This document shows positions 2,678-38,305 of a stretch of 64,000 bases of DNA, piece after piece. This stretch comes from a virus, in IMG/VR virus record IMGVR_UViG_3300034683_000333; one strand, given 5' to 3'. Position 1 is the first letter of the stretch. Each line of letters opens with the position of its first letter. A program made the translations under genes and the position numbers. Under the pieces are notes generated by a model that searched no databases, was not told the origin of the DNA, and saw only the letters and a list, made by a program, of their open reading frames with translations.

Positions 2678-3772
2678 TTATACTCCCGATATCGGAATGT
2701 TTTTGATATTCGTTGACACCACACTCTGATAATATCGCTTGACATTTGAATTTAAAATATTCCGAAACCGGATTAGCAACATCAACACCCCAAACGCCTT
2801 CTCCTTATCCCCATTATCGTACATCATATCGACGAACATGTCAAGACATTTTGCATAAGTAAAAATGTATTCCAAAATATCAAAATAGTATTCAGTACTT
2901 AAAAAATCATGTATGATATTTCTATATTTCAACCAAACACTGATTTCAATACCATTTAATACAACATAATGACTTGAGATATCTTTTATAATGAAGTCCA
3001 TAAAAGACTTATTATCTATTGATTGACGAATTTTATTTCCAATCACATACAATACAAATGATATAGTAGTTATTGTACCCAACGGAATTGTAAGCTTTTC
3101 ATTTTCCAGCTTCTTTATATATGGAATACCATAAACATCAATAAAAGACTTGAATTTATGAATATTATATTTACCAGACATTAACATTGAACGATAAGCT
3201 GTCGCCGTCTTGATAAATTCATCGAATTCATTAGAATTAGATAAAATCAAATTAGACAATGTGTCAAGTCTGTTATAGAAATTTACAAAACAACCCTAAG
3301 TATCGTAAAACCACTTGCTGGGTTTTGCATATGAAAAACCATTTTGACATTTACAAAGTGCGCTTAACTCCCTCGTCCTGACGATATTCAACACCATGGT
3401 CAACCTTGGGTTTCCCTTGAACAACAGAATTGTGTTGGATGAATCTTTAGACTCTGGAATCAAACCACTAAACAAATCACGATACCACGTCAAATTGTTA
3501 ACAAACCGATCCTCAATAATATCGAACACTTTTATTCTACGATCAAAATTAAACGACTTATATACACTATTTTTTTCATCATCAACAGTACAATAATTGC
3601 GTAAATAATAATAAATTGAATTTTTTAGACTACTTTCGTTTCCAGATGTGTAATGTTTTATGTTATTAAAAATAAAATCAAGGGCAGTTTCGAAACTGCC
3701 CATGTTACGCAAATAGTCAACTCCGACCGACTGAACAAAGGTCTCAATAATCGGTTTGTAGTTACACTTCAA
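2678..3772 (-). CDS. hypothetical protein (fusion of track ORFs 3296..3772 and 2678..3259 through TAG 3296-3298)
   Basis: Both ORFs share a frame; the 12-codon linker is open (KWFYDT*GCFVNFYNRLDTLSNL). Confidence 0.75.
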
Positions 3773-10419: not shown

Positions 10420-11118
10420 TCAAACCATAAGCTTCAAAAATTGCATTCTCATGTCGTCATCCCATTTGCGATCCTTTAGGCGGATCGGAAGCTTAACACC
10501 CATCGTCCGCAATATTTTCCAAACGTCGGTTTTTTTGTAAAACAAATATTTGGAAAGTTCAAAACATCCATCGGGTGTGAACAAGAACACCCTTTCCGTT
10601 CTTTTTTGCCAATCCTCGGAATCCACCATTTTGACAACCGCAAGGTTCGATTCCTTAACAACCTACGTGATATAGAATCCCTCGGGAATCGAACAATTGG
10701 TAAAATTTCTCAACCTTTTCTTAAAATTCCTATCTCTCCATACAACATACTTTTCAGGAAATGTATTTCTATAGGCCAAATCCCGATCATTTACATTACA
10801 TTCGGTTTTGGTCCAATCATTTCTTCTTATCTTTGCTTTATCTCTTTCAGCCACAATTCGAACATATTTTTTCTGTTTTTCAGTATACCAAGAAACAGTA
10901 AGATATGTGGTTTTAGCCAAATATTTATAGCTGTTTCCAACATGGCCTCCATCCGAATAGATGTAGCCATACTTATTTTCTTCAATCATGGGAATGTATT
11001 TAAACAGTACCCAACGTTCAATGAGACGACACCGATTACCACGTTCTACAGTGTCAAGAATCTACTCGATCTCATTCTTTACATTTTCTACATCAATGAA
11101 AATAAAACGCTTTTCCAT
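10420..11118 (-). CDS. hypothetical protein with two in-frame TAGs (11062-11064, 10663-10665)
   Basis: SD AGGGGG plus ATG 11118; one frame joins track ORFs 10663..10989 and 10420..10629 (KNEIE*ILDT; GFYIT*VVKE); ends TGA at a terminator. Confidence 0.8.
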
Positions 11119-11164
11119 GATTGCCCCCCTATGTTTGAGTCATCCAACCCTTATCGTTAGTTAT

Positions 11165-11193
11165 GATTTATCATAACTTGATAAGTATGTCAA
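11165..11193 (-). promoter_or_regulatory. sigma70-type promoter
   Basis: TTGACA-17 nt-TAAATC with TG extension. Confidence 0.55.
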
Positions 11194-14554: not shown

Positions 14555-17500
14555 ATGTTTTCACAAAACTCATCCATGAATCTTGATATCCTATCAAATA
14601 AAGACTTTGTAAAAGCATATAATACAATACTCCAGTCTCTCAATCAAGATACGCCAATTTTTTACCAAAATACTGACAAGTTCCAAATTACCATCAACCC
14701 CCAAGACTTTGACTTACTACAAGTCAACGAAAAACTATCACACGCCATCATACTACCATACGAAGTTAGTATTGTCAATAAATCTTTTATGAAAACAAAA
14801 GTATATCGATTGGTATCACGAAAACTTCCAAATACGATAAACTAGCACACGAACGCACAATTCCCATTCACCGTTGAAATTGACCAAACCAGGTCCTTTC
14901 TATTGTACGTGACTATTGATACACTTGATGATATTGATTGGTTAATCGATAACGATTTGGCATTTGTCGCTTATACAGATAACACCACCCTTTACGAAAT
15001 CGATTTTGCGATAAGAGTGCCTGACATTCGTGGAATTTCTTCATTTAGCCAGTTTGAAAACTACATCGAAGCAAAAGATTGGTACGAATCCGGTGTAACG
15101 GATTTCGACGAAATCATTAACCTTAGTATAGGAATCCATAAACAATCACAAGCAAGCCGCATCCTTAATCAAGCATTGATTGATTTTACAGATCGCTCAT
15201 CACAAGAATTCAATTCATTAATTCAGTCCATTTAGAATCCAGAAGACATCTCTGAACTCGAAAAATAGAGAGCAACCTTCAAACCCCATCTTCCTGGAGA
15301 TTTCATTTGGGCGCTCCTCACACTTGAAGACAACTATTCACTCAAATCAAAAATGAAGTTTAATATTCAAAGAATTTCATATATTTCTGGTATTTTAGAA
15401 AACAAAAAAAATTGCGGATATGATGAAGCATCACAAATGTTTGAAAATTAGAAGAATTCAGTTGAAGTCTATACCGGAACGGACATAACAGAACAACGAC
15501 AAAAACTCGATTTACTTACTATGCAGATCAGAATACCTTGGTTCGGCTCTGAATGGTGTATTTTTGACGTTATTACGACCATTCTAAATATCAATGGATA
15601 CCAAACTACTGTAACAGACAACCAAAGTCTAAAGGAATATGTGGGACAACACATTCGATCAAGCGGAATCAGCAACTTAACACCTTATATAGAAGATGTA
15701 AACATAAACTATGATATTAGCTCACAAATTAAGGAAAATACTTATACATTTACAACTTTGGTTCCTACTGGTTATGTACCTAAACCTGACAATACAACAC
15801 AATATGGTTACAAAATCATTCATGCAGATCATTCTATTTTGTTTAGTGATATTCTCGATACAACCGACTTTGAGATAAGCTTTATATATCATCGCCCAGT
15901 AAACATAACAAGTAGGAATTTTATTTTTCATGATTTCAAAGATTCTTTTATTCAGAAAATGTTAAGTTATGATTGGACATCTTATTTTGGTGGAAGCATC
16001 GACCCAAATATTCCCATTAACCTACTATCGACAGACTACACGATTGAACTCTAGAAAACCAATGAAAATGGTGACTTCACCTACGACAACACACAATGGG
16101 TGGTCAATAAAGTTACAACACTTCATCTTTCTGATGAAATTGTTGAATCTTTTAGAATAACGAACTTTGAAATTCTTGACGATGGAAGTGGTGACATCCT
16201 TCTAACACAAACAAATAATGTAACCGACATCGTTGCAATCCACAAAATTGACGTATTCAATGAAGGAAACACATATTTGCAACTTACTGAAGCGAAATGG
16301 TTTTTGCCTACAATATACCCATATCAAGAACAATTCAAAACAGCATTTCCATCATTCTTCGTTGGCCTCGACACCATAACAAACAACAAAGAATTTTATC
16401 AATCCATGATTAAACGAATCGACATTGTTTCAACTGGAACACTAACTCCTGGTGAAACGGGTTCAATTTTCGTTGTTGTCAGACTGAATAGAAACATATT
16501 AAGTCATTACCTATCACAATTTATTGAAATACCATATGCAATCAAGCTAACATTCAATGAAGATCTTCATTATTACATCACGTGGAGCACAAATGGCATT
16601 ATTTCAAAATACCTCGACTGGAAAGAAGGAAAACAAAAGTATCATCCCAAGAACATTATGTGGCAGTAGCCATTTTCCAATGAAATTCATAACGGTGATT
16701 TGCCACTGGCAATTCCAGATGATGATGTATATAAATACTTTCCACCTAATTTTAATTACTAGTTTTCCACCTACCACGAAGAATCAAGCGACCCAGTGAC
16801 ATATCCCAACGACTTTGTAAAAACACTGGCACGGATGAGCGAAGATCCTTCTACGAATCTACCAGCGCCCATCGTCAAACCTGGACAATACGGCATCGTC
16901 GCATACCCGATGATTCTTCCTATTCCAGAAGGTGAGACAAACATCGGGAGCATTTCTGATCTCATCACCCGGTGTCATACCGCACCACTCAACAAAACCA
17001 CCTATCGAATTCACTGGCTCTATTTCAACGAATTTTTTGATGACATCCTCTCAACATACAAAACGGCAAAAAAACTCGGCTTTAGTTGGATTCCAACGTC
17101 AGAAAATACACACTACGTAACAAATGGTCTTGACTATACTGAAAATAGAATAATTCCAAATACAGGAAGTATTCGACCAATCAATTTAGAATAGTTTACC
17201 AAAATCAACGCAAAAGTTACATTTATGTTTAATGAAACACTTAAAAATGTATTTGAATACAGCTTCCCACGCACCATTTCAACATATGAAACGCTAAGCG
17301 ATGTAGATAAATTTTTACAAGAACTTAAAGGTGAAAATGAAGAAATAATACCACCAAAAGAAGATAAACCAAAGAAGTTTTTGGATAAATTCCTTTACAA
17401 AGTAAAATTAGGTGAAATTGTAGGAAACAAACCAGGAACTATGATTGTTCAAACCGATTATATGAATCTTTTAACAATTCAGCGACACGACAATTTCACG

Positions 17501-19168
17501 ATCAAAACACACTCAATCGGCCCCGATTCACCAGACACGTATCAAATTTCAATAGTTGATCCGACACTTGGTAACGGGGAAATCATTATTCGCTTCTTAG
17601 GATCTGATTACACTTTTACTTTCGAATGGGAAAAAATTGATGAACGTTCCATCCTCGAAAACATTGGTAACGTTGTAATCGATCCAGATTACATCAACCT
17701 TAAATACATTCCCATTGACGAAACATATTCTGTTGCCATCTCCATTACAAATCCAAATCCGTTTCCATTGGATATCACGAGCTTACCCATGGCAAATGAT
17801 TCGATGTTGGTTGTTGAAATGGTTGAATTTCCAGAAAATGAATATCTTAATCTTCTTTATCATCATTGGAAAGTCCTAAATAAACCTTATAAACTTCAAC
17901 CCAATGAAACTGTAAAACTTGTTTTACGAATTATTCCACGTCGCATTGGGGTGAACTTTCATACATTATACTTAAAAATCGGTAATTCAATCCGAACTGT
18001 TGACATCGAATTTAACTCTTTTGTAAATAACAAACCATATTTTGTTCTAGATGAAGAAAGTAGAATTGTCGATTTTGGAGATGTACCCATCGGGAAAATT
18101 GAAGAAAAATCAATTATTATTAAAAATATCGGTGATGTTATTGGAAAAATAAATTCAGTTTACACTTTCGGAAATGATGCTCAACATTTCAAGCTTCTCG
18201 ATCCAAGAACTGGAGAAATTGCAGAACGTTTGTCATTTAATAAGATTGTAAAACCGAAAACATCCCTTCACGTACCGGTACGATTCTACAGCCAATCATA
18301 CGGTCTGAACACGTCGTATGCTCACATCGAAACCAATGAACCGGTTGTTGACCAGTGGCAAATTTTCGATGATTCGACCCAGCTATTCAGAAATGCACCA
18401 AAGTATCTGTCAACACTGTTACGTGCTCAAGTCGTTTTGGAAGACGACCCAGTTGATCTTGATACCTATATTTTCCTTGGTTATGTACATCCAACCAGAA
18501 GTCGTTTTAGAACATACGAATTAACACTCAATAACAAATCATCCGATAAGATCATTAGCATTTAGAAAATTGATAACTACATGAAAAACTATATTAAAAT
18601 AAAATACAGTCAAGAGCCTTTCTCACAGAAAACAAGCGTTTATATAACACTCAATCCAAGATCATATTCAGAAAACATATATTTTGATCAACTATTTGTC
18701 TGGTATTCCGTTTATGACAAGAAGACGCATAAACGTCGAATCGTATTGAAAAAAATACCCATTTCGTGGCAAGTTACCTCAGAAAACTATTATGAATTTG
18801 ACATCAATGCAAGTGAGCTTATTCTTGTCACAAAACCGTTTATCAAAACAATGAAAGTTTTGCATGTCACAAACTTTAGCAACGTCGATGCAACAATGGA
18901 GATAAGCTTTTTGAACGATTTTAGTGGACTTTACTCTATTGTACCCCATCTTATTGGACCTGTTCTTATACCAGAAGGAGTTCGATACACTTTCAGAATT
19001 CTTTTCGGTGGGGATCAACGATTTCTTGGAAAATATGACACAGGAATAAACATTCTATTCAATATTGGTGAATCAACAATATAGAAAACAATTGCATTGA
19101 AGGGACTCATTGGAGAAGAAAACATCATTAAAGCGTACAAGCGAAAAAATATCATCATAACAACCTAA
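14555..19168 (+). CDS. large 1537-aa putative virion/surface protein with ASH/choice-of-anchor-D Ig-like domains; 10 in-frame TAGs
   Basis: Seven track ORFs (14555, 14903, 15521, 16100, 16796, 17225, 18581) are all in one frame, separated only by TAG, with no TAA/TGA until 19166. VDFGDVPIGKIEEKSIIIKNIG..FKLL..VPVRF..HIETNEP is ASH-like. Confidence 0.88.
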
Positions 19169-19203: not shown

Positions 19204-20391
19204 TTAAACCATCTTGATGATTTTGCCAAATGGTGGCTTAAACCAATTATTTCTTATCGTGAGCATCCAAAGTACCGGGAACCTCGGAACCGATTGGGGA
19301 AACGTATTGCAATACCCATCGGTATAATAGAGACACACCTTGGGTAAAACACGTTCTCTTTGGAGAAGATTGAATCCAGGAACAAAACTCGTTCCACCAC
19401 CGCCACGATACGTGAGTTCAATTTTATCGTGAGGCTTCACGACGAAATAATCATGAACGGCGAAATCCACCGTAATAAAATGAATGGTAGCTTCAAATTT
19501 CGCCCGAATCTCTTCCAAATCACGGTTGATTTGAGAAATCATATCCCGTGAAATACTACCACTCGTGTCCACAATCACGGCAACATCCAGCGCTTCCTTT
19601 TGACGAGCCTTCCCAGGAAGGACAATGCCATGAGCACGAAGACGTTTTTTGGTCTTCTTCCACGACGTGGTTTTAGAAAGGCACGTCGTTAAAAACTGAT
19701 TCAAGATCTTCCTATAATCCACACTCGGATTGAAAACCTTGTCGAATTCTCGCAAAAAATGACCGGCTCTTGTTCCAGCCAACGTTCCACCAAGGCTTTG
19801 TCGAAGGCTTTCAACGGTAGAACGCCATTCAATTTCCTGTTCGTTTTCATTTTTTTCACCGACAGAATTCCGAAGTTCTTCTGGAACGGGAAGCGTCCCG
19901 GGGGAGTAGAGATCATCGGGAGCACCGCCACCACCCGAACCCGATTCGGCATTGGAACCGGAAGAACCATTTTGCTCGGCCTTATCTTCTTCCTGCAACA
20001 ACAATTCGTAAACTTCTTCGGCGCTCATTCCATGAAAACGACTGTCGAACAATGCACCCTTAACAAGCGAATGATTGGAAACCAAAATGCCATTCACAAC
20101 ATAATCTGCCGCCGTGTTCCATGTTTCTTTTTCACGGCTACCTATTCTCAGATGATGCAACATCGCACAATGCATCACCTCATGGGCAAACACAAACACT
20201 TGTTCTGGAACGCTTAATTCATCAAAAAAATCAGGATTGTAGGCCAAAAATTGACCATCCGTTGCCGCCGTCTTTATTTCACTAGTAGGGAAAATAACAA
20301 GCTTATTGAGAAGATTAGCAAAGAAAGGATCTACGAGAACGAATCTTGCCTTAATGTTTCTCAATCGTTCTTGTTCTTTCTTGTTGATCAT
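19204..20391 (-). CDS. DUF2201-type putative metallopeptidase plus VWA domain protein
   Basis: TAATDG, FVFAHEVMHCAMLH, WNTAADYVVN, VIVDTSGSIS, GGGGTSF, YYTDGY. Confidence 0.9.
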   Translation of the reverse strand: MINKKEQERLRNIKARFVLVDPFFANLLNKLVIFPTSEIKTAATDGQFLAYNPDFFDELSVPEQVFVFAHEVMHCAMLHHLRIGSREKETWNTAADYVVNGILVSNHSLVKGALFDSRFHGMSAEEVYELLLQEEDKAEQNGSSGSNAESGSGGGGAPDDLYSPGTLPVPEELRNSVGEKNENEQEIEWRSTVESLRQSLGGTLAGTRAGHFLREFDKVFNPSVDYRKILNQFLTTCLSKTTSWKKTKKRLRAHGIVLPGKARQKEALDVAVIVDTSGSISRDMISQINRDLEEIRAKFEATIHFITVDFAVHDYFVVKPHDKIELTYRGGGGTSFVPGFNLLQRERVLPKVCLYYTDGYCNTFPQSVPRFPVLWMLTIRNNWFKPPFGKIIKMV

Positions 20392-20420
20392 TTCACCCTC
20401 CGTTGCTTGTTTGTAATAAA

Positions 20421-20449
20421 TATATATCACAAAACAAGCAACAAGTCAA
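20421..20449 (-). promoter_or_regulatory. sigma70-type promoter
   Basis: TTGACT-17 nt-TATATA with TG extension. Confidence 0.7.
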
Positions 20450-20480
20450 TAAAAAAGGGGATGGTTGTGAACCATCCCCG
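20450..20480 (-). terminator. intrinsic terminator
   Basis: GGGGATGG/CCATCCCC stem with T run on the minus strand. Confidence 0.7.
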
Positions 20481-20487
20481 AAGGTTC

Positions 20488-21369
20488 TTAATTCATGTAC
20501 TTCTTAATTTTTTCGAGAATCTTCGCCGCATCTTCGGCGACCTTCTTCTTGGTGTCGGGATTTTCTTTGATTTCATCTACATTCACACCACCAAAGACAT
20601 CCCGAATTTCCGTGGCAAGACGATTAAGCTCGGGATCATCCGACACGTTAAGGGATTCCACAATTTCAACAATATCGTTTGCCGCCTCAAACATGCTCTT
20701 GCGAAACCTTTCGGCCTCGGGATCGGTCAAACGATCCTTGATCTTTTTCACCACATTCATCATGCGGATCACAAGATCCTTGCTGGCCGCCTCAAAACGC
20801 TTCTGAAGCAACTGTTCGAGGCGATTCCGCATCCTCTCCACTTCCTCACCACCAAGACTTACTCGAAAATCGGTGGTGGGAATGGGAAACACATCGATGG
20901 AAATTCCGAAATAGGATCGAATTTCGCTCTCGGAAGGATAGTCATTGGGGTTAAAAAGGTGACCCAATTCAACCCGGCTCTGCTCCACAAGATCGTTATA
21001 CTCATCAATAAACTTGTCCACCGCCTTTTCCCACTCGGAACGGGCCTTCTCGATTTTTTCCATGTATCGGAAATAATTCTTCGTCGGAAGAAGACGTTCC
21101 CCACGATCCCCCCAAGGAAGTGTGTTTTTCCGATGCATATTACGAAGCCTTTGTTCAAGCTTTTTAAGCTCGTTCAGCCTCTCCTTGGGAACCAGAAACT
21201 TCACATAGTTTCCACGGGTCTCCTTCACACCATAGGTCGAGGAAACGGCGTCATTTCCACGAACATCAGTGGTTTTTCCCACCCAACAGGAAATTGTGAG
21301 ATCAACCACCACGGCCTTTTCACAAATGTCATTCTTATTATCTTCAATCTTCATGGCGATAGCTTCCAT
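20488..21369 (-). CDS. DUF3150-like protein
   Basis: VDLTISCW, TLPWGDRGERLLP, LFNPNDYPS motifs; usual neighbour of MoxR/VWA modules (recalled). Confidence 0.65.
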   Translation of the reverse strand: MEAIAMKIEDNKNDICEKAVVVDLTISCWVGKTTDVRGNDAVSSTYGVKETRGNYVKFLVPKERLNELKKLEQRLRNMHRKNTLPWGDRGERLLPTKNYFRYMEKIEKARSEWEKAVDKFIDEYNDLVEQSRVELGHLFNPNDYPSESEIRSYFGISIDVFPIPTTDFRVSLGGEEVERMRNRLEQLLQKRFEAASKDLVIRMMNVVKKIKDRLTDPEAERFRKSMFEAANDIVEIVESLNVSDDPELNRLATEIRDVFGGVNVDEIKENPDTKKKVAEDAAKILEKIKKYMN

Positions 21370-21423
21370 TTCTTCTCCTCCTATGTTTAATTGTTTAATT
21401 CACCAACCCCTTATTGTGATTCT

Positions 21424-21452
21424 TTTATACCAGAATCATTGTTTAATGTCAA
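21424..21452 (-). promoter_or_regulatory. sigma70-type promoter
   Basis: TTGACA-17 nt-TATAAA. Confidence 0.75.
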
Positions 21453-21503
21453 GTGGAAAATCAATCATTAATCTTTTGATTTTCCACTTGATCAATCATT
21501 GTT

Positions 21504-22550
21504 TTAATTAAGATACTTTGCAAACTTTACAGCCCACAGCGCCATTTCACTCGTTTCAAGAAGGGCTGGCTTTACCTCTGCAATCATCCTAATGAATGCG
21601 ATTTCATATTCATCACCGAAACGTTCAACATACTTCTTGATCTTTCCGATATTCTCACCATTCACAACATTGATCAAAGAATTGCAAACAGCATGACGAA
21701 TATCATGTTCTTCTGGAACTGGAGTTCCTTCAGGATCATTCAAAATATCATCAATATCAGGAAACTTTTCAAACATCTTAATAAAATTCAAAAATTCAAT
21801 ACCAACACCGTCACCAACCGTTCCAATAATCAACTCGTCTCGAACAGAACCGGTAAAGGAATAAACAATATCACTTACATATTCCCATGTTCTGGGCGTT
21901 GCGAACGTAACCGCATCCGAATCGGGATTAAACTGGAAAAGATGGTGCCGTTGCTTGGAAACATAGGCAATCACATAGGGATGAATGTTGTTGTTTTCGG
22001 CCCACTTGATCCACGATTCCACGTCAACGTCAACGTTGATGTGGATGAACCGATTGGCGAGTGGAGCACTCAAATCGTAGGTATACGCACGATCTTCGCT
22101 TCTGTTTCCAGCCGCAACCACAACCCAACCATCGGGAAGTCGATAATTATCAATTTTGCGATCCAATGCAAGCTGAAGCGCAACCTTTTGGATATCGGGT
22201 TCGGCGGCGTTCAGCTCATCGAGAAAGAGAATACCACGACCATCGTGGGGAAGAATCGAAGGCTGAAACCACACCGTCTTTACAGACGAAACGGGAATGT
22301 ATTCATCCATGGAATTGAGATTGCGAAGGCGATCCTCTTCCACGACAGCAGGAAACGGAATGCCACGCATGTCCACCGTATCGTAGTAGATAAGGCGGAA
22401 ATCAATGAATCCGACACCAAGTTCATCGGCGACCTGCTTGATAAGCGTGCTCTTTCCGATACCAGGAGGCCCCCACATATACAAAGGACGACGAAATCCG
22501 TTTTCAAGCGATTTCTTAATGACCACCTTGATGTCCGAAATCTTCATCAC
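21504..22550 (-). CDS. MoxR/dynein-related AAA+ ATPase
   Basis: WGPPGIGKS, ILFLDELN, AAGNR, LANRF, TPRTW. Confidence 0.92.
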   Translation of the reverse strand: MMKISDIKVVIKKSLENGFRRPLYMWGPPGIGKSTLIKQVADELGVGFIDFRLIYYDTVDMRGIPFPAVVEEDRLRNLNSMDEYIPVSSVKTVWFQPSILPHDGRGILFLDELNAAEPDIQKVALQLALDRKIDNYRLPDGWVVVAAGNRSEDRAYTYDLSAPLANRFIHINVDVDVESWIKWAENNNIHPYVIAYVSKQRHHLFQFNPDSDAVTFATPRTWEYVSDIVYSFTGSVRDELIIGTVGDGVGIEFLNFIKMFEKFPDIDDILNDPEGTPVPEEHDIRHAVCNSLINVVNGENIGKIKKYVERFGDEYEIAFIRMIAEVKPALLETSEMALWAVKFAKYLN

Positions 22551-22734: not shown

Positions 22735-24243
22735 ATGAAAATAAAAAAGCGAAAGAACAACCCAAAACTAATAAAAACACCACAATCGGTCATCCGCATA
22801 AATGATGGTAAAACTGAAGTTTATCGTCAACATTTTTACAAGTTAGCAAATAAACAAAAAAACATCAATCTTAATCGAATAGGATTAAACAAAGACGAAC
22901 GTTTGATAGTTGACACACTACTTGAACATTCCGATAAGGTATATCTTGTTGGTGGTGCTGTAAGAGATTTATTTCTCGGCAAAAAACCAAAGGATTTTGA
23001 TTTAGCAACTGATTTAAAACCAGAAGAAATCATAAAAATTTTTGGTGAAGACAAAGCAAAATTAACGGGAAATGTATTTCCAACAGTCCGAGTAAAAATA
23101 AATGATTCTGAGATTGAAGTAAGTACATTCAGAAAGGAAATTGGAGAACCAACCGGAGATAGAAAGCAATTTACCGTAAAATATGCCACAACAATCCAAG
23201 AAGACCTGGATAGAAGAGATCTTTCCATCAACGCCATTGCCATCAATTGCAAAACGGGGGAAATCGTCGATCCACACAATGGAATTTCAGATATTGAAAA
23301 CAAAGTTATTCGATTTGTAGGCGATCCACGTGATCGACTCCGGGAAGATCCTTTGCGGTTCTACCGGGCCATTCGATTTCGTCTTAAATTGGATGGAAAA
23401 TATGCACCCGAAACGATTTCGGCTCTTAAAGACCCATCAGTGGTCCAAATGGTAAAGGAAAATGTATCTAAAGAACGAATCCGAGAAGAGATTTTAAAGT
23501 CCATGAGCGCCACACAACGGGCGTCTGGATTTTTCAGGGATTTACATGCGTTCGGTATGTTGGAATACCTGTTCCCACCACTAGCCAAGTCCGTAAAACA
23601 CGACGGTGGTCCACACCACGGGGAAGATGTGTTCACCCATGCTATGTTGGTGGGAGACAATTTCACCCCACGAATCCCCAACGATCCCAATGAATCTCTG
23701 GCAAAACTGGCCGCTTACCTACACGACATTGGGAAACCAAGCACATACGACCCCGAAAACCGCTCCTTCTATAATCACGAAAAAATTGGAGTTTCTGTTG
23801 CAACTGAAATTCTAAAAAGCTTGAAATTCTCTACTAAAGAGATAGAATATGTATCGAAATTCATTCGCTACCACATGAACAAACCGACCACCCCAAAGGG
23901 CGCTCGAAAACTGATTCAACAATTCGGTGAAGAAGATTTGCCCAATCTCATCGAGCTTTTTCACGCAGACACAATCTCAAACTTGAACAAAACGCCGGAA
24001 GAGATTAAATTTAGTAAGGAAAAGATTGAAAATATACGGATTTTAATTGATGAGGTAAATTCAGAAAAAGATAAATTTTTGAAACCAATAATTACGGGCC
24101 ACACACTCATAAACGAACTCAAACTTAAACCCGGAAAAATTTTCAAGGAAATTCTCGATTTTGCAAACGAATTGACCTTGGAAGATCCAAATAGAACCAA
24201 AGAGGAAATACTTAACCAAATTAAGAGGAAATTTGATTTATGA
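22735..24243 (+). CDS. cca: CCA-adding tRNA nucleotidyltransferase with HD domain
   Basis: YLVGGAVRD..KDFDLAT, RRDLSINA, EDPLRFYRAIRF, ERIREE, LHDIGKP. Confidence 0.92.
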   Translation: MKIKKRKNNPKLIKTPQSVIRINDGKTEVYRQHFYKLANKQKNINLNRIGLNKDERLIVDTLLEHSDKVYLVGGAVRDLFLGKKPKDFDLATDLKPEEIIKIFGEDKAKLTGNVFPTVRVKINDSEIEVSTFRKEIGEPTGDRKQFTVKYATTIQEDLDRRDLSINAIAINCKTGEIVDPHNGISDIENKVIRFVGDPRDRLREDPLRFYRAIRFRLKLDGKYAPETISALKDPSVVQMVKENVSKERIREEILKSMSATQRASGFFRDLHAFGMLEYLFPPLAKSVKHDGGPHHGEDVFTHAMLVGDNFTPRIPNDPNESLAKLAAYLHDIGKPSTYDPENRSFYNHEKIGVSVATEILKSLKFSTKEIEYVSKFIRYHMNKPTTPKGARKLIQQFGEEDLPNLIELFHADTISNLNKTPEEIKFSKEKIENIRILIDEVNSEKDKFLKPIITGHTLINELKLKPGKIFKEILDFANELTLEDPNRTKEEILNQIKRKFDL

Positions 24244-24653
24244 AAGATAGCATAAACGAAAAAGCGAATCTTTTCATCAACATAGTAAAAAAAAGTAACG
24301 GTATGCTCCACGCTTGTGTGATACTGATGGATGACGATTTTTCGTTGTTAGATACCTATTCAAACCACAACATCAAAGAAGAGGTCCTGAAAAACACACT
24401 GAAATCAATGATCTTGACATATTTGCCAGAAAACCTAGCTATTAACATCATTTCATCTACACCGAATATTTATGAAATAGTTCCAGAAATAATTCCAACT
24501 GAAATCGTAAAAATAAATAATATATGTAACAAGGAAGATTTATTACATTACTACTCGCTTAGTGAAGATTACACACTAGCGAAAGACGAGAAAGAAAACT
24601 TTGAAAAACTCGTGAATCTTTGCGAAATGACAATAGAGTTCTACAAATCTTAA
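24240..24653 (+). CDS. hypothetical protein
   Basis: ATGA overlap with cca. Confidence 0.7.
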   Translation: MKDSINEKANLFINIVKKSNGMLHACVILMDDDFSLLDTYSNHNIKEEVLKNTLKSMILTYLPENLAINIISSTPNIYEIVPEIIPTEIVKINNICNKEDLLHYYSLSEDYTLAKDEKENFEKLVNLCEMTIEFYKS

Positions 24654-24666
24654 TTGGAGAGCCAAC

Positions 24667-25158
24667 ATGAAGTTTAACAAAAACTAGGCAAAAGAACGAT
24701 TTTACAAATTCAATCACAGCGGTGCGGCAACCGACATAAAACTCACATTATTCGAATGCCGCTCAATGAAAGAATTCTGGGAAACTCTCGAAGAAGGCTT
24801 CGGTCCAATCCGAGACGACGTTCTTTACGGGAAGGGAAAATTTTTTAGTAAAGAAGAAATTCATAAATTCAAGGAAGATCGAATTCTTACGGACTACACA
24901 CGAGAGGTTCACGACATCTTGCGGTTTCTCTCGACACCCGACGTATTTCGAACATTCGAAAAATTATATTTTCAGGAAACCGACAAACCCGACCTTTTCA
25001 CTAGAGAAAATAGTCGGAAATTTTATGAGATGGCATGGCGTCCCTTTATCAAAGACCTACATGCTATCGGGAATATCGAGAAGAATTGGAAAAAATACCT
25101 AACTAACTATGCGAAAAAACTAAATAAAACGAAGGTAAAAGTAAAACAGATCACTTAA
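24667..25158 (+). CDS. hypothetical protein; TAG at 24685-24687 (codon 7) read through
   Basis: SD GGAGAG plus ATG 24667 in frame with track ORF 24766 (MKFNKN*AKERFYKF). Confidence 0.7.
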
Positions 25159-25193: not shown

Positions 25194-25222
25194 TTGCAAA
25201 TAAAGCGAACCTTTTTTATATT
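25194..25222 (+). promoter_or_regulatory. sigma70-type promoter for trpS
   Basis: TTGCAA-17 nt-TATATT. Confidence 0.55.
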
Positions 25223-25275
25223 AGGGGAAGTACCTTCTTGGAGCTATGTAGTAACACCAATCAACGAAAGGAGAC

Positions 25276-26502
25276 ATGCGATTGATGGAGAGTTTCACCC
25301 CCACCGACTATTCCGTTTCGATGGTTGGCTTTCGTCCAACGTCCAATTTGCACCTTGGGCACTATCTTTCCATTATCAAACCAATTTTAGAAAATCAGTT
25401 TAAAACAATAATTTTTTCGGCTGAACTACACACCCTTACTTCTTCACAACATCACCCCGGTCGTGCGTTGAAAGACGCACGAGAAACCACAATCCAATGT
25501 ATCACGACAATTTCTCGCTATGTCAACCTGGACCCTGAACATGTTGTTTTTATCAGCCAATATGAGATGAAAGACAAACACTATGAACTCCATAACATGA
25601 TTATCAACGCTGGAACCACACCGGCAATTCTATTCAGAAACCCAATTTACGTCAGTGCACTTAAGAATGAATTCATTGATTACCTAAACGATAAGCAGAC
25701 ATTAAACGAAGAAGAGATAAATTGCATCGTGGATGTTTTCTTTTCTCATTCCGATATCCTGATTGGTGGGCTAACGCCCTTGGGAACAAACTGTATCATC
25801 AACCAACTCGAAAAATGCAAAATTGATAAAAAGACAATCAATGAAATAATCCATCACGTAACCAAAATCTCTTATGGAAATCTGGGACTAGCCCATTATC
25901 CTCTTCTCATGGCGGCTGATGTGATCCTCTACGAACCCGACACACTCATTGTCGGTGACGACCAGAAACCCAACGTCCAAATAATCCACGAAATCATCGA
26001 TATGTTGACACATCGATGGAACATTGGCATCAAGCGATTTCGACCCGTTTATTCAGGCGACCGACCCCTTTGTGGATTCGACGGACGCAAAATGTCGAGT
26101 TCTCTAAATAATTATCTTCTACTCGATTGGTTCACGACCGCAAAAGATCTAGTTTACGAATATTACAATAGATTTATCACTTATCCGAGACGCCGAACTG
26201 AACCTGGAATCTTCCACGAGTGTCCATTAAGCACACACTGGATCGCCTTTGGAAACAAAGACCAGATTGAAGAAATTCAATCAGCTTGCGAAACAGCAAA
26301 AATTGGATGCCTAGATTGTAAACGTAAAATTGCGGAACACATGTTGGTCACATTGAAACCACGATTTAGGGCCATACCAAACGTCAAAAGTCTCATCGAA
26401 GAAGGAAGTTGGTGGGCCAAAAATCGAATTAAAAATTCGAGTATATTTTCAGATTGGAATTATTCAGAAACCTTCGATTCGCTAGATATTCTTACCTACT
26501 GA
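25276..26502 (+). CDS. trpS: divergent tryptophanyl-tRNA synthetase
   Basis: GFRPTSNLHLGHY (HIGH), AELHTLT, YPLLMAADVILY, VGDDQ, KMSSS, C-x21-C-x6-C-x2-C. Confidence 0.9.
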   Translation: MRLMESFTPTDYSVSMVGFRPTSNLHLGHYLSIIKPILENQFKTIIFSAELHTLTSSQHHPGRALKDARETTIQCITTISRYVNLDPEHVVFISQYEMKDKHYELHNMIINAGTTPAILFRNPIYVSALKNEFIDYLNDKQTLNEEEINCIVDVFFSHSDILIGGLTPLGTNCIINQLEKCKIDKKTINEIIHHVTKISYGNLGLAHYPLLMAADVILYEPDTLIVGDDQKPNVQIIHEIIDMLTHRWNIGIKRFRPVYSGDRPLCGFDGRKMSSSLNNYLLLDWFTTAKDLVYEYYNRFITYPRRRTEPGIFHECPLSTHWIAFGNKDQIEEIQSACETAKIGCLDCKRKIAEHMLVTLKPRFRAIPNVKSLIEEGSWWAKNRIKNSSIFSDWNYSETFDSLDILTY

Positions 26503-26984
26503 TTACCAACCAGCTTCCACATCCGAAAACACGAAAGGGGAACCGAAAAAAACGGTTCCCTTTTTGTATATTTAGTGTTTTTAAAAATGATATTTGACTG
26601 CTTAATTACATCCATCGTTGTAATCAAAAGCGTATTCAAACTGGAATTAAACATGACATACACTTCCGCTTTACAATGGCGTTTTCTAGCTGGCACATCA
26701 ACAGTTTCCTAACCTTGCCATTCTCCATATTTAGTCCACACATTTTTGACTTCCACTTCAACCGGAATATAACAATCATTTTCCTTATCATATAACATAA
26801 TATCAAAATCACGATATTGTTCTTCGTCTGGTACAATAACATCATATCGTTTGAATTGACAAAAAAATGACGCACCCACATTCTTTGCAGGTGCGTCAAA
26901 TTGTTCGTAATGAATTCTACTGAATTTCTTTTTTCCAACGGAGATTTCAGAACAAGAGGCGGATTCCATTCCCACTTTTCGCAC
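26496..26984 (-). CDS. PD-(D/E)XK-like phage nuclease; TAG at 26709-26711 read through
   Basis: DFDIML..VEVEVKNVW..WQG*ETVDVPARK; joins track ORFs 26709..26984 and 26496..26696 in frame. Confidence 0.72.
26534..26565 (+). terminator. intrinsic terminator after trpS
   Basis: GGGAACCG/CGGTTCCC stem followed by TTTTT. Confidence 0.65.
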
Positions 26985-27393: not shown

Positions 27394-28050
27394 CTAGCTC
27401 TCCTTTCTTGTTTGGGTTATTGTTGTATAACACACATTACCATTACTACTATTTTTCAAAGATGCGTAGAACATCATTCTTCCATACACAGACAACACTT
27501 TTTGCGGATATCTATTGGCATTACCACTGTAGTGCCTTAATGTTTTGATAACATCATAATCATACATTTTAAGGAGTTTGGTTAGTATATAATTACCAAC
27601 ACGGATGTTTTTCTCAATATCCAATAAATCTTTACGATTACGAATTCCAAATTGCTTTAATTCATCTTTCCAAACATCATAATAAATCTGGCATAAACCG
27701 AAAGCTCCAACACTACTATGAGCATTTGGATTAAAATGACTCTCAACATACATAATTGATATTAGAAGAATTGGATAATCACTAACTTTATACGCTACAT
27801 CAACAACTTTGTCAATATATTTTTCACGTTCATGCCCTATATATTGTATAATATGATCTTTTACTAATTTTTTATTTACACCGGTATTTTGAGAAGGTAG
27901 TAAAAAATGCGGCGGAAAATAATCAATAATAATTCCCTCATTGTTGGTTTCCTCTTCTTCTATGTTGGGTTTGTTTACTATATATTTATCAGATACAAAA
28001 AAACCAATCATCAAACCGACACAAAATGCTACGTATGAAATGTACTTCAT
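27394..28050 (-). CDS. SLT-family lytic transglycosylase with N-terminal membrane anchor
   Basis: IMYVESHFNPNAHSSVGAFGLCQI, NIRVG, hydrophobic N-terminus (SAR-endolysin-like). Confidence 0.85.
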   Translation of the reverse strand: MKYISYVAFCVGLMIGFFVSDKYIVNKPNIEEEETNNEGIIIDYFPPHFLLPSQNTGVNKKLVKDHIIQYIGHEREKYIDKVVDVAYKVSDYPILLISIMYVESHFNPNAHSSVGAFGLCQIYYDVWKDELKQFGIRNRKDLLDIEKNIRVGNYILTKLLKMYDYDVIKTLRHYSGNANRYPQKVLSVYGRMMFYASLKNSSNGNVCYTTITQTRKES

Positions 28051-28499: not shown

Positions 28500-29372
28500 T
28501 TAAAACCTCCAAATAACTTTTTTAACTGCATTTACACAATACTTTGATTTGTTACTATACCAAATATCAACATATATACTACAATATTTAACCAACGCCT
28601 CACTATGTAACTTATAATCTATCTTAGATTTGTCCCACCACTTATGAAACTGCTTAGAGTTATACTGTGCCAATTTACCAGCATGTCGATAGTTAAATTT
28701 CTCTCCATCCCACCAAACATCAAAATACTCTGAGCAATACTTAGGTAAATATCCAGAATCTTTTTTCCAATTGAATTTATCTGGATTCCACCATTTGTCA
28801 AAATGTGCGTTACAATATTCAGCTAAATAAGATGAACCACGCTTCCAATCAAACCTTTCTGAGTCCCACCAATCATCAAAATTATCGGCACAACACTTAG
28901 CCAAATAAATCGAATCACGACTCCAATGAAATTTATTTGGATTCCACCACTTCCGAAATTCTTTGTAACAATACATTGCCAAGTACTTGGAACAATTATT
29001 CCAATTGTATCGATTTTCATCCCACCATATATCAAAATATTCAAAACAATATTGAGCTAAATAGCTCGATCCCTGTATCCAATTAAATTTATCAGGATTC
29101 CACCATTTTAAAAAGTCGTTACGACAAAACTTTGCCAAAGCCCACGAAAAGTTATTAAAATTATACTTGTTTTCGTCCCACCACACATCAAAATAACCGT
29201 AACAATACTGAGCTAAAAACCCAGAATGTTCTTTCCAATTGAATTTATCAGCATCCCACCAAAGCAAAAACTTGTCAAAGTGAAGAATAACTAGTCTTCC
29301 AGAATCTTCTTTCCAATTAAACGTTTCGGGATTCCAATTATTGAAATCAATACTAAGGGTCATTTTTCTCAC
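28500..29372 (-). CDS. Trp-rich ~26-aa tandem repeat protein (paralogue 1)
   Basis: Repeated LAxYCxxxFDxWWDxxKFNW units. Confidence 0.85.
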   Translation of the reverse strand: MRKMTLSIDFNNWNPETFNWKEDSGRLVILHFDKFLLWWDADKFNWKEHSGFLAQYCYGYFDVWWDENKYNFNNFSWALAKFCRNDFLKWWNPDKFNWIQGSSYLAQYCFEYFDIWWDENRYNWNNCSKYLAMYCYKEFRKWWNPNKFHWSRDSIYLAKCCADNFDDWWDSERFDWKRGSSYLAEYCNAHFDKWWNPDKFNWKKDSGYLPKYCSEYFDVWWDGEKFNYRHAGKLAQYNSKQFHKWWDKSKIDYKLHSEALVKYCSIYVDIWYSNKSKYCVNAVKKVIWRF

Positions 29373-29815
29373 TCATCCGTCTTGGGATGAATTCCATAAG
29401 AGTCAAACACAAAATCCACTGCTTCGGGCGGATACTCTGGAGCTATGGCCTCAACAAAGGCCGAAACTTCCTTCTCTGTAGGATTCCCACGAAGAATTTG
29501 ATCCCAATTGGAACCCTAACCAAACAGACCAAGCTCGCTGAAAATGATCTTGGCATGTTTCTGAAGACCTGGATCATCTGGTTTTACCTTCAGAAGGTAG
29601 CGCAAAAGCATGGTATAATGCATACGCTCCCAAGGACGGGCTGAATAGAGAAGAGACAAAGACTCTTCACGAGCCTCCCTACCCTTTTTCGTCAAACCAA
29701 GAGAAGGTGGTAAAATGGTATATGTTATTTGGGTGGGAGTTTGCCACAATTGAATTTCACCATCCCTCGTTCTTGCAACCAAATTAACACTCATTGCACC
29801 CTCCTTTGTTATCAC
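29369..29815 (-). CDS. hypothetical protein; TAG at 29516-29518 read through
   Basis: Readthrough adds 48 residues (LFG*GSNWDQILRG..) and ends at a TGA overlapping the next gene start. Confidence 0.72.
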
Positions 29816-29822
29816 GAAACAT

Positions 29823-29851
29823 AAAATATCATATAATTAAGAACTCGTCAA
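29823..29851 (-). promoter_or_regulatory. sigma70-type promoter
   Basis: TTGACG-17 nt-TATTTT with TG extension. Confidence 0.55.
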
Positions 29852-29904
29852 GTTCTTTTTTATCATGAACAACAATGATCAATTCCCAATCTTAATGTTC
29901 ATAA

Positions 29905-30609
29905 TTATTTCAAAGCAATGTACTTTGCTACAGCTTCCCTACAATACTTCGATTTACTCGAATACCACACGTCAAAGTATTCATAACAATGTTTTACTAA
30001 TAATTGAGCATGTTCTTTATAGTTAATTTTAGATCTGTCCCACCATTTAGTGAAATGGTTAGAACAATATGTAATTAAACTATCAATAGCGTGCCAATTA
30101 AATAGCTTTGGATTCCACCACTTATCAAAATTGTCAAAAGCGTACTCTGCCAATGCCCATGAACAATTTATCCAATCATATCTTTTCTCACACCACCATT
30201 TATCGAAGTGATTGTAACAGTATTTCGCTAATGCCCAAGAATTAACCCAATTAAATCTTTCGGCATCCCACCAGATGTCAAAATGATCGGAACAATATTC
30301 AGCCAAAAGAACAGAATACCATCTTTCAAGTTCAAATTTCTCAGCATCCCACCATTTTTCAAAATGCTGGTAGCAATACTCAGGTAAAAATCTGGCATCA
30401 TTTTTCCAATTAAACTTTTCAGTGTCCCACCAAATATCGAAATGATTATAACAATATTTAACAAGATACCATGAATACTCCCAGTTATACAGATTCGCAT
30501 CCCACCACTTATCAAAACAATGGGAATAATACCTAGCTAAAATCCGAGAATTCTTCTCCCAATCAAACTCTTCTGGGTTCCAATCATTAAAATCAATATA
30601 CATAATCAT
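29905..30609 (-). CDS. Trp-rich repeat protein (paralogue 2)
   Basis: Same repeat unit and C-terminal cap. Confidence 0.85.
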   Translation of the reverse strand: MIMYIDFNDWNPEEFDWEKNSRILARYYSHCFDKWWDANLYNWEYSWYLVKYCYNHFDIWWDTEKFNWKNDARFLPEYCYQHFEKWWDAEKFELERWYSVLLAEYCSDHFDIWWDAERFNWVNSWALAKYCYNHFDKWWCEKRYDWINCSWALAEYAFDNFDKWWNPKLFNWHAIDSLITYCSNHFTKWWDRSKINYKEHAQLLVKHCYEYFDVWYSSKSKYCREAVAKYIALK

Positions 30610-31385
30610 TCCTCAGTAACATACATTTTCAAAGCTTCTCTGCAATGGGTGGATCTATCCGAGTACCAAACGTCAACGTATTTGTAGCAATACTTCATCA
30701 ACAATTTTGCATGTTCCGTATAACTGATTTTAGATTTGTCCCACCACTTTGGAAAATGATCTGGGCAATACTTTATAATCTCAGACATTTTACTACGTGT
30801 AAATCTCTTAGCGTCCCACCATTTATCGAAATGATTAGAACAATATTGAATCAAAGACCGGGAATCTTTTTTAAAATTAAACTTTTCCGGGTTCCACCAC
30901 TTGTCAAAATTCTCGCAACAAAACTGAGCCAAAAACCCCGAAAACGATTTCCAATTATACCTTTCGGCATTCCACCAATCATCAAACCGATGGGAACAAA
31001 ACTGCGCCAACACCCATGAACCACTTTTATAATTGAATCTTTCCGCATCCCACCAAATATCAAAATCTTCACAACAATAACAAACAAGTATCGCTCCGTG
31101 TCTAGTCCAATTGAACTTCTCCGGGTCCCACCATTTTTTGATGTGTTTCTTACAATATTGAGCCAACACACCGGAACACCTATTCCAGTTGAATTTCTCC
31201 GGGTCCCACCAAGTATCAAAGTACTCATAACAATACTGAGCTAAATTAAAAGAACCAGACCTCCAATTGAATTTCTCAGAATTCCACCACTTATCAATTA
31301 AATTAGGATAATTTTGAGCTAAAAACCAAGACCTACTCTTCCAATCGAAAATCTCTGGACTCCAATTGTCGAAATCAATTCTCAT
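30606..31385 (-). CDS. Trp-rich repeat protein (paralogue 3)
   Basis: Same repeat unit and C-terminal cap. Confidence 0.85.
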   Translation of the reverse strand: MRIDFDNWSPEIFDWKSRSWFLAQNYPNLIDKWWNSEKFNWRSGSFNLAQYCYEYFDTWWDPEKFNWNRCSGVLAQYCKKHIKKWWDPEKFNWTRHGAILVCYCCEDFDIWWDAERFNYKSGSWVLAQFCSHRFDDWWNAERYNWKSFSGFLAQFCCENFDKWWNPEKFNFKKDSRSLIQYCSNHFDKWWDAKRFTRSKMSEIIKYCPDHFPKWWDKSKISYTEHAKLLMKYCYKYVDVWYSDRSTHCREALKMYVTEE

Positions 31386-31387
31386 GT

Positions 31388-32242
31388 TTATCCCTCGATG
31401 ATCATCTTTTCAAGGGCTTCCCTACAATACTTTGAGCGACGAGTATACCATTTATCAAAATGCTCATTACAGCATCTCGCTAAGAGACGAGCATGTTCCT
31501 TATACCTAATCCTCGATTTATCCCACCACTTGTCAAAATGTTCAGAGCAATATTTAATCAGATATTCAGTATCTTCAATAGTGAGTGTTCTTGGATCATA
31601 CCACTTATCAAAATGTTTGGAACAATATTTAGCTAAATTCTTCACTGAATAGCCATAGATAATGTATTGTGGATTCCACCATTCATCGAAATAATCTGGA
31701 CACCCCAAAGCCAAAAATCTAACATGACTATCGTTTATCCTTTTAGGGTCCCACCAATGATAAAAATACTCAGAACAATACAAAATCAAATCAACATAAT
31801 CACTATCATAATTATATTTATCCTTGTCCCACCATTTAAGAAATTTACCAGAACAAAACCGAGCGAGTTTCCCGGATGCCTTTTTCCAATTGAACTTCTC
31901 CGGGTCCCACCAGATATCAAAATAACCAAAACAATATTCCGCCAACAAACTCGATCCATTTACCCAACAAAAATTCTCCACATCCCACCATTTATGAAAA
32001 TGTTCGTGACAAAATCTGGCAATATGGCCCGACCATGACTTCCAGTTAAATTTATCTGGATTCCACCAGATATCAAAATGATGAGAACAATACTCTATCA
32101 ACTCCAAATAGCCGTCATCATAATTAAAACGATCCCGGTCCCACCATATTTCAAACTTGTCCGGGTAAAACTTTGCCAACTGCCACGAAATATATTTGTA
32201 ATTAACCCGATTCGGATTCCATTCTTTAAAATTAAACGCCAT
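31388..32242 (-). CDS. Trp-rich repeat protein (paralogue 4)
   Basis: Same repeat; SD GGAGGG before ATG 32242. Confidence 0.85.
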   Translation of the reverse strand: MAFNFKEWNPNRVNYKYISWQLAKFYPDKFEIWWDRDRFNYDDGYLELIEYCSHHFDIWWNPDKFNWKSWSGHIARFCHEHFHKWWDVENFCWVNGSSLLAEYCFGYFDIWWDPEKFNWKKASGKLARFCSGKFLKWWDKDKYNYDSDYVDLILYCSEYFYHWWDPKRINDSHVRFLALGCPDYFDEWWNPQYIIYGYSVKNLAKYCSKHFDKWYDPRTLTIEDTEYLIKYCSEHFDKWWDKSRIRYKEHARLLARCCNEHFDKWYTRRSKYCREALEKMIIEG

Positions 32243-32272
32243 AAACACCCTCCGACAAATACATTTAAACAC

Positions 32273-37598: not shown

Positions 37599-37684
37599 TT
37601 TTTACGTTTTCTATTTACACCAACCTGGTGTATTACTCACGCTCCTCAACCAGTGAAAAAATTTTTGTAAAACTTATTGAAATC

Positions 37685-38305
37685 CTACTCCTCACAAACT
37701 TTTAAATCAAGAACAGGATCAATCAAATAAACATCATCTTCGTGAGTCATCTTTAACTCACCATGAATAAAAACAGGTGGATTTTCCTTAAAATTCGGAA
37801 CTTGTCGGTAATGATTTTTCATCATATAAACACACAATCGCCAATAAAGTTCCGTCATCGCCAAAACCTTCACATATTGGCGTTGCCTCACCTCACCACC
37901 AACGGCAAAATCCCCAATGATTGTATATTTTACATCAAGAAATTCGTTGGGAACCAAACTAAAATCATAAAATAGATAAAACTGTCTTACATGTTCCATC
38001 ATTGGTGCATTACCAAACAACAACTGACGCACACGCCACTTACTACGCCCATGAAGATCGTGAATCAGGTTCCATTCACCAATCAATGGAGACGACACAT
38101 CAAATCGTGCAATCCGATGATAAAACTCAGGTCTAAATGGATTCGTCCGATGCAACCACCGGGTTCCCTCGATCAGTTCCTTGCGTGAATAGGGATGATA
38201 ATTCACGATACGAAAATTATGAACCGTCGAAGTAAAATCATATACAAAGGTTGCATCACTTGGTATTACCTGCAATGAAGGTAAATCATCATATATTTTT
38301 ATCAT
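37685..38305 (-). CDS. hypothetical protein (ends at TAG; readthrough would add 13 residues)
   Basis: 206-codon ORF with ATGA overlap upstream. Confidence 0.7.
   Translation of the reverse strand: MIKIYDDLPSLQVIPSDATFVYDFTSTVHNFRIVNYHPYSRKELIEGTRWLHRTNPFRPEFYHRIARFDVSSPLIGEWNLIHDLHGRSKWRVRQLLFGNAPMMEHVRQFYLFYDFSLVPNEFLDVKYTIIGDFAVGGEVRQRQYVKVLAMTELYWRLCVYMMKNHYRQVPNFKENPPVFIHGELKMTHEDDVYLIDPVLDLKVCEE

Follow-up and report, generated by a model that had tools for sequence, protein, structure and literature searches.

Why should a bacteriophage carry its own divergent tryptophanyl-tRNA synthetase (TrpRS)? The question is raised by an ORF (open reading frame) at 25276..26502 (+ strand; 408 aa, TGA stop) in a 64,000-nt stretch of the IMG/VR virus record IMGVR_UViG_3300034683_000333, a stretch that is referred to here, at its full length, as the window. 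A preliminary description, made from the nucleotide sequence of the window, had proposed that the enzyme serves as a dedicated amber-suppressor synthetase, acting on a tRNA(CUA) encoded outside the window and allowing TAG to be read as Trp. The window corresponds to G000:C1:1-64000 in reverse complement, and the record is that of a single virus (126,535 bp; 36.6% GC; CheckV completeness ~64%). We find that this phage reads TAG as Trp, mainly in large late or structural genes, and we consider it probable, from the comparisons set out below, that the TrpRS attaches Trp to the phage's tRNA(CUA) and so enables a TAG=Trp code.

The first part of the answer concerns the codon. When TAG was read as sense across the whole genome, greedy ORF coverage rose from 75% to 89% and ORFs lengthened on average from 248 to 366 aa, while reading TGA or TAA as sense brought the coverage to only 79–80%. 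Coding density was not improved by reading TGA as sense, in keeping with the earlier claim that TGA is a normal stop here. In-frame TAGs (171 altogether) are more frequent late than early, at 0.72% versus 0.21% of the codons in the respective halves of the genome, and they cluster in very large genes of the half outside the window, such as a 2511-aa gene with 27 and a 1598-aa gene with 20; the half that carries the replication and nucleotide-metabolism genes is nearly without TAG. Within the window, a recoded gene is exemplified by the 1537-aa frame at 14555..19168 (+), which is open only with 10 TAGs as sense.

Since searches of the TAG-rich genes with Pfam and PHROGs returned almost no families, which made profile-based codon inference impossible, we sought relatives for codon comparison. 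Paralogues and internal repeats within the genome offered just five aligned TAG positions and were uninformative, and a check of whether TAG occupies a conserved Trp of the Kelch blades was dropped, as in the one hand-aligned blade pair the TAG was not on a conserved position. A shorter-protein search with the 2511-aa gene, on the other hand, found P0122 (57% identity), the contig of which (L012) belongs to the same phage lineage: flanking genes are 98–99% identical, and the L012 allele of the 2511-aa gene is 59% identical. L012 itself has 29 in-frame TAGs, and no in-frame TAA or TGA, within tblastn alignments to proteins of our phage. Opposite the TAGs of our phage, L012 has TGG 15 times, TAG 12 times, TAT/TAC five times, TTT twice and single instances of six other codons, with CAG/CAA not encountered among 29 sense codons; in the other direction, eight of 16 L012 TAGs stand opposite Trp of this phage. 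When substitution frequencies were derived from these L012 alignments, the likelihood at 44 informative sites favoured Trp over Tyr, the next best amino acid, by 57.5 ln-likelihood units, and Gln fell outside the best eight. Given both the interchange of TAG and TGG with L012 and the likelihood ranking, TAG and TGG are synonyms in this lineage, as had been supposed from the window. The candidate assignment of TAG to Gln (genetic code 15) was ruled out by the absence of CAG/CAA opposite TAG and by the position of Gln outside the top eight. As a separate observation, the two alleles of the 27-TAG gene (L011:915-8447 and L012:4085-11605), diverged to 59% identity in 98–99% identical backgrounds, look like the outcome of cassette exchange affecting a probable tail or host-range protein.

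A TAG=Trp code calls attention to the tRNA. The tRNA(CUA) that the preliminary description had placed beyond the window does exist, and is called by both aragorn and Rfam at G000:C1:69063-69139, 5,063–5,139 nt past the window start. It is one of two tRNAs encoded by the genome; the other, tRNA-Ile with the anticodon UAU, lies at 49018-49094 (+) and is the sole tRNA within the window. The tRNA(CUA) has a regular cloverleaf and an encoded CCA, and in its acceptor stem pairs 1–4 (C1-G72 to C4-G69) are all C-G, followed by G5-C68, with U at position 73. Bacterial Trp identity depends on G73 (the major element), C34/C35/A36, A1-U72, G2-C71, G3-C70, G4-C69 and G5-C68 (PMC9976931), and of these elements the tRNA(CUA) has only C34, A36 and G5-C68; nor does it pass as a canonical tRNA-Trp, for which G73, A1-U72 or G1-C72, G-C pairs at 2–4 and a CCA anticodon are expected. 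The tRNA-Trp genes of Aquificota have acceptor strands of the form GGGG...CCCC and G73. Several elements used by glutaminyl-tRNA synthetase (GlnRS) are missing from the tRNA(CUA) as well. The combination of C1-G72 and U73 occurred in none of the 73 phage tRNA(CUA) genes of an unconstrained IMG/VR sample, and a metagenome scan in which G70-G72/U73 was forced yielded about six distinct CCC...GGG-U73 amber tRNAs (L210-L218, on JGI contigs). Apart from the acceptor end these tRNAs are unlike one another; their contigs span 32–50% GC, have zero proteins in common with our phage, and in several cases carry the tRNA within a phage-like tRNA array. Judged from these gene sequences, the C-G/U73 acceptor end recurs but is rare, and the L210-L218 tRNAs may represent a wider amber-suppressor class.

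We then consider what kind of protein the gene encodes. It matches Pfam PF00579 (tRNA-synt_1b) with an E-value of 1.8e-27 and 96.8 bits against a gathering cut-off of 21.1, and misses the NCBIfam trpS equivalog cut-off (TIGR00233; 97.9 versus 176.75 bits), other trpS models being further below; since it scores under every NCBIfam trpS cut-off, it is a divergent member of the family, too divergent for automatic naming. Its relatives of solved structure are all TrpRS, the best being 2g36, the [4Fe-4S] enzyme of Thermotoga maritima. The AlphaFold2 model (predicted local distance difference test, pLDDT, 86.6; predicted template-modelling score, pTM, 0.82) likewise had only bacterial TrpRS among the top Foldseek matches listed, with a template-modelling score of 0.84 to 2g36 (target-length normalised). 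Motifs were checked in alignments with 19 and then 119 homologues (120 sequences including the phage enzyme), and the Trp-pocket residues reported earlier as kept are indeed in place: D215 of YPLLMAAD and Q230 of VGDDQ are present in 120/120 sequences and H52 of SAELHT in 118/120. The HIGH-type signature reads LHLGH and the KMSKS-type signature KMSSS. Taken together, the protein is, by sequence and predicted fold, a divergent bacterial-type (class Ic) TrpRS with a catalytic core that is predicted to be intact. Close relatives of the enzyme or of the genome were not found among GenBank phages or in IMG/VR.

It could nevertheless be argued that the protein is a TrpRS-like paralogue with a regulatory, tRNA-binding or Trp-sensing function, and that its link with recoding is coincidental. 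NCBIfam trpS scores far under the cut-offs (98 versus 176.75 bits for TIGR00233), a very long branch and the KMSSS in place of KMSKS would all suit such a protein, but a clade whose members have diverged to 27–49% identity keeps the HIGH motif, the K-M-S core, the Asp and Gln of the Trp pocket and four cysteines of a metal cluster (described below). Conservation of the catalytic core over such distances points to purifying selection on catalysis, and a full-length TrpRS fold is confidently predicted; we therefore regard a non-synthetase function as highly improbable.

The anticodon-binding region, encoded at 26179..26322 (+), carries the signature by which the enzyme and its relatives can be recognized (T302-Y303-P304-R305, C316, W322, C338, C345 and C348). 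The replacement of A-V-T-D by F-I-T-Y noted in the preliminary description is real, Asp being found in 114/120 homologues and Tyr in the phage enzyme; what that description missed in the same region was an iron–sulphur (Fe-S) cluster motif and the loss of a His beside the cluster. The four cysteines (C316-x21-C338-x6-C345-x2-C348) align Cys for Cys with 2g36 and conform to the published motif of Fe-S TrpRS enzymes, C-x(21-24)-C-x6-C-x2-C (PMC2954223). In the T. maritima enzyme (TmTrpRS) an R-FeS-H triad is made up of R224, the cluster and H242 (PMC4027196). This triad is incomplete in the phage enzyme, in which the Arg is kept (R305) and the His, present in 101/120 homologues, is replaced by W322.

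Neither change is peculiar to one protein. A word-based search recruited P0002 (48% identity) and P0003 (29%), and an exhaustive HMMER search recruited P0127-P0131, to a clade in which all eight representatives have a large insertion (81–85 aa separating the NPxY motif from the YP motif) and a 2-residue deletion in the TDPxRxRxxDPG loop. The Asp of 'TDP' is gone in 8/8 (Tyr in seven, Ile in one), as is the cluster-contacting His (replaced by W/F/Y/A/L), and the Arg, the four cysteines of the cluster and the entire catalytic core are retained in every representative. Bacterial enzymes that bear the insertion retain both Asp and His, and 19 other phage TrpRS from IMG/VR belong to a type without the cluster cysteines and retain TD or TN. 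The three clade members included in a tree were monophyletic (100/100), on a stem of ~2.3 substitutions per site. Since the published TmTrpRS–tRNA model puts the cluster at the anticodon, where together with R224 and H242 it is proposed to read C34 (PMC2954223, PMC4027196), the signature of the clade would fall in the region believed to determine anticodon specificity.

The large insertion in the connective region, also pointed out in the preliminary description, is borne out by the alignments: NPxY and YP are separated by 85 aa in the phage enzyme versus 19–22 aa in 113/120 homologues. The ~64 extra amino acids (residues ~123-200; 25642..25875, +) form five confident helices in the AlphaFold2 model. 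The insertion is common to the phage clade and to TrpRS of Aquificota at the same site (P0004, P0014 and others, assigned to Aquificota by a scan of species genomes), and therefore alone gives no evidence of retuning. The common site might suggest that the enzyme originated in Aquificota, but in a maximum-likelihood tree from which the insertion had been removed the phage clade did not join the Aquificota enzymes. Of the features that set the enzyme apart, the more telling ones are the motif for the Fe-S cluster and the missing His.

How is the clade related to recoding? Genomic context was available for five of its members (this phage, L010, L007/L022, L179 and L181), and all five contexts are phage-like and have genes in common with this phage. 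In the relatives, the in-frame stops within tblastn alignments to proteins of this phage were TAG only (1, 5, 7 and 6), never TAA or TGA, so that among the five with genomic context the clade is restricted to TAG-recoded phage contigs. A gene with a PF00579 domain was found in 2/49 and 0/5 phage records with another tRNA(CUA), and both positives are jumbo phages of >420 kb.

These observations bear on the possibility that the TrpRS raises the supply of Trp-tRNA(CCA), with the suppressor being charged by the host TrpRS or by another host enzyme. Demand for Trp in this genome speaks for such a role: four tandem genes at 28500-32272, 2–6 kb downstream of the TrpRS gene, encode proteins with 9–11% Trp, all from TGG, late genes hold 1.67% TGG besides 0.72% TAG, and ordinary TrpRS genes occur in other phages without such recoding. 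However, a need for supply gives no reason why the anticodon-domain Asp (114/120) and His (101/120) should be lost throughout the clade with the Trp pocket kept, while other phage TrpRS retain TD or TN, and it has to contend with a suppressor that lacks G73 and C35, major determinants for bacterial TrpRS (PMC9976931), as well as with a clade seen solely in TAG-recoded contigs. We consider this explanation improbable.

We suggest instead that the TrpRS acts on the phage tRNA(CUA). The TrpRS gene is TAG-free, as had been stated (zero in-frame TAGs were counted), and would be translated by the unmodified host machinery under the standard code; the enzyme would aminoacylate the tRNA(CUA) with Trp, and the charged tRNA would then let the TAG-bearing late genes be completed, while a nearby CCA-adding enzyme may keep the 3' end of the tRNA intact. 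Such a scheme agrees with the early/late timing proposed for other recoded phages. In several early genes, for example at 27394-27396 and in 37646-38305 and 10441-11166, a TAG precedes the following TAA or TGA by only a few codons. Such genes may still end at the TAG until the suppressor accumulates, in which case the codon would have two meanings over the infection cycle.

How exclusive the partnership is can be judged less firmly. The preliminary description saw in the enzyme and the tRNA a natural orthogonal pair. In its strict form, with an anticodon reader retuned from CCA to CUA, acceptor recognition shifted to C1-G72/U73, and host TrpRS, GlnRS and lysyl-tRNA synthetase (LysRS) ignoring the suppressor, mutual orthogonality is a tentative proposal that we find possible, although doubtful. 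Alternatively, the enzyme may have lost discrimination at position 35 and at the acceptor end, and may charge the host tRNA-Trp(CCA) as well as the phage tRNA(CUA), which would make it necessary for recoding and yet neither dedicated nor orthogonal. This relaxed use overlaps with our proposal that the TrpRS charges the tRNA(CUA), differing from it only on exclusivity. The variable residue at the His position in the clade (W/F/Y/A/L) looks more like a contact lost than a new specific one gained; the record has no phage tRNA-Trp(CCA), so that TGG decoding relies on the host tRNA, and a high demand for Trp would gain from the charging of both tRNAs. On the other hand, Tyr in place of Asp in 7/8 clade members suggests a selected new contact; none of the observations bears directly against relaxed use, which on the whole we consider possible, if less likely than not.

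A number of points weigh against charging of the tRNA(CUA) by the phage TrpRS, in either form. The two genes are ~30 kb apart and do not form one module, and a release-factor gene (PF00472) was not found in the ~64%-complete record. The tRNA(CUA) was not found in relatives that are short or readable in part, namely L007/L022 (26 of 87.5 kb), L010, L179 and L181, and the co-occurrence of enzyme and tRNA therefore rests on one genome. In the KMSSS motif of the phage enzyme the second Lys has become Ser, a position at which 117/120 homologues and the other clade members have Lys. The identity rules applied to the tRNA are those of model bacteria and may not be those of the host, and the anticodon-reading roles of the Asp and the His derive from a homology model based on the human complex and from a theoretical study. 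Finally, descent of the tRNA(CUA) from a tRNA-Trp was considered and set aside as unproven: in a ranking against the full Hydrogenobacter tRNA set and a partial Hydrogenothermaceae-like set, the core identity was 0.78-0.81 for Trp tRNAs, 0.80-0.83 for Lys tRNAs and 0.81 for Met tRNAs. Since Lys and Met tRNAs are no farther from the tRNA body than Trp tRNAs, its ancestry is no pointer to Trp. The anticodon arm equals that of Hydrogenobacter tRNA-Lys(CUU) except at nt 36.

A recoded phage that has its own suppressor tRNA and synthetase is a known kind of system. The closest parallel among those compared is with the 'Jade' phages (Borges et al., 10.1101/2021.08.26.457843), in which, as here, a stop codon is reassigned to Trp, a suppressor tRNA and a TrpRS are encoded in the standard code, and recoding is found mostly in genes for late, structural and lysis functions. 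The Jade phages differ in that they recode TGA with a UCA-type suppressor, in contrast to the TAG and the CUA tRNA with C1-G72/U73 described here, and in that their module includes release factor 1 (RF1), its three genes being adjacent and placed upstream of the phages' lysis cassette; in our 64%-complete record no release factor was found, and tRNA and TrpRS lie ~30 kb apart. Of a code-change module, the present genome thus has the suppressor tRNA and a cognate-type aminoacyl-tRNA synthetase in the standard code, and lacks adjacency within one operon. Code-15 phages, for example crAss-like phages (PMC9523058, PMC11210395), also combine late-gene amber recoding with a phage tRNA(CUA), but read TAG as Gln, whereas here no CAG/CAA stands opposite TAG and the likelihoods rank Gln far below the best candidates.

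With respect to the enzyme, the T. maritima TrpRS (2g36; PMC2954223, PMC4027196) shares with the phage protein the four-Cys cluster motif and the Trp pocket, and is its best match in both sequence and fold. Relative to it, the phage clade has other residues in place of the cluster-contacting His242 and of Asp221 in 'TDP', lacks 2 aa of the Arg224 loop and carries the ~64-aa helical connective insertion. A further parallel is provided by Escherichia coli Su7 and by engineered TrpRS/tRNA(CUA) pairs (PMC2965240), in which a CUA tRNA is likewise meant to insert Trp, the known problems being that TrpRS loses its recognition of C35 and that GlnRS mischarges the tRNA. Those are laboratory constructs or mutants, while the pair described here is a natural candidate with an acceptor stem off both the Trp and the Gln identity sets.

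For phages, the literature searched documents no changes other than TAG-to-Gln and TGA-to-Trp (preprint 10.1101/2021.08.26.457843, according to which no others were observed; also PMC11210395), and we did not find TAG-to-Trp in phages there. Outside phages, the Balanophora plastid (Su et al. 2019, cited in 10.64898/2026.01.09.698701) reads UAG as Trp via a tRNA with a CUA anticodon, a change that this source calls exceptionally rare; it took place in a eukaryotic organelle, was enabled by loss of pRF1 and did not involve a dedicated synthetase.

TAG-to-Trp is the difficult reassignment: with U35 in place of C35 a tRNA is badly recognised by TrpRS and becomes prone to glutaminylation, and for this reason the change is otherwise documented in one plant plastid lineage only. 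Recoding of TAG to Gln and of TGA to Trp can exploit known weaknesses of the host GlnRS and TrpRS. The present lineage appears to have solved the TAG-to-Trp problem by means of its own divergent synthetase and a tRNA that avoids the host identity sets, and in the literature searched the codon assignment, the tRNA identity set and the enzyme clade all appear to be undescribed. If confirmed, this would be a new phage genetic code, mistranslated as Gln by current gene callers, as well as a natural experiment on the rewiring of class Ic anticodon recognition and on the proposed role of the Fe-S cluster, and would supply a candidate amber-suppressing pair for genetic-code expansion. If, in addition, the pair were truly orthogonal, the phage would have a 21st sense codon of its own that could be switched over time, and synthetic biology a ready-made amber pair of bacterial type.

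Returning to the gene itself, the start at 25194 given earlier is not that of the coding sequence; it coincides with the TTG of an unrelated 69-aa frame and with the leading hexamer of a site that resembles a promoter. A Shine–Dalgarno sequence, AGGAGA (25269..25274, +), lies 10 nt 5' of the ATG at 25285 and 1 nt 5' of that at 25276, and since this spacing fits the former better, ATG 25285 (405 aa) is, from sequence, the more likely start than ATG 25276; an identical database protein, P0001, has been called with the same 405-aa start. The enzyme also occurs in identical form on a 195-kb contig. Of the promoter and terminator ascribed to the gene, the second can be upheld: a strong bidirectional intrinsic terminator with a 15-bp stem and a T-run is predicted at 26531..26567 (+), between the TrpRS gene and the convergent gene 26460..26984, and terminator-like sites number 11 in the sequence versus 4.3 in shuffles. 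The proposed sigma70 promoter (TTGCAA-17-TATATT, 25194..25222, +) matches at 9/12 positions, which is no better than chance; because sites of this grade are about equally common in shuffled sequence (15 observed versus 13.1), a promoter of its own is unsupported. The candidate late-promoter heptamer ACTAATT was not over-represented (17 and 16 copies versus ~26 expected per strand), and was not found upstream of the tRNA(CUA) or the TrpRS gene.

The CCA-adding enzyme (tRNA nucleotidyltransferase with an HD domain; 22735..24243, +) is TAG-free and precedes the TrpRS gene by two small genes without assigned function (24240-24653 and 24667-25158, +). The second of these has one TAG, at codon 7, and a homologue of the first adjoins the TrpRS gene in the relative L010. 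Just upstream of the CCA-adding enzyme, on the opposite strand, a cluster at 19204-22550 (-) encodes a DUF2201 metallopeptidase/VWA-like protein, a 293-aa protein of unknown function and an AAA+ (MoxR-like) ATPase. Position 27073 of the window is the only base that deviates from the G000 record. Further downstream, the four Trp-rich genes at 28500-32272 are tandem paralogues on the (-) strand, the products of which (234–294 aa) consist of about ten repeats of 26–27 aa of the form F-D-x-W-W-D-x-x-K-F-N-W...L-A-x-Y-C; they have no TAG and no Pfam family, and their language-model look-alikes are uncharacterised phage proteins. Finally, the 5-kb contig L010, which encodes the closest relative of the TrpRS (48%), carries a full-length transfer-messenger RNA gene at 3177-3532 (-; Rfam, 191.8 bits) that overlaps a TnpB/Cas12f-like gene at the latter's 3' end and adjoins a dCMP deaminase gene homologous to that of our phage.

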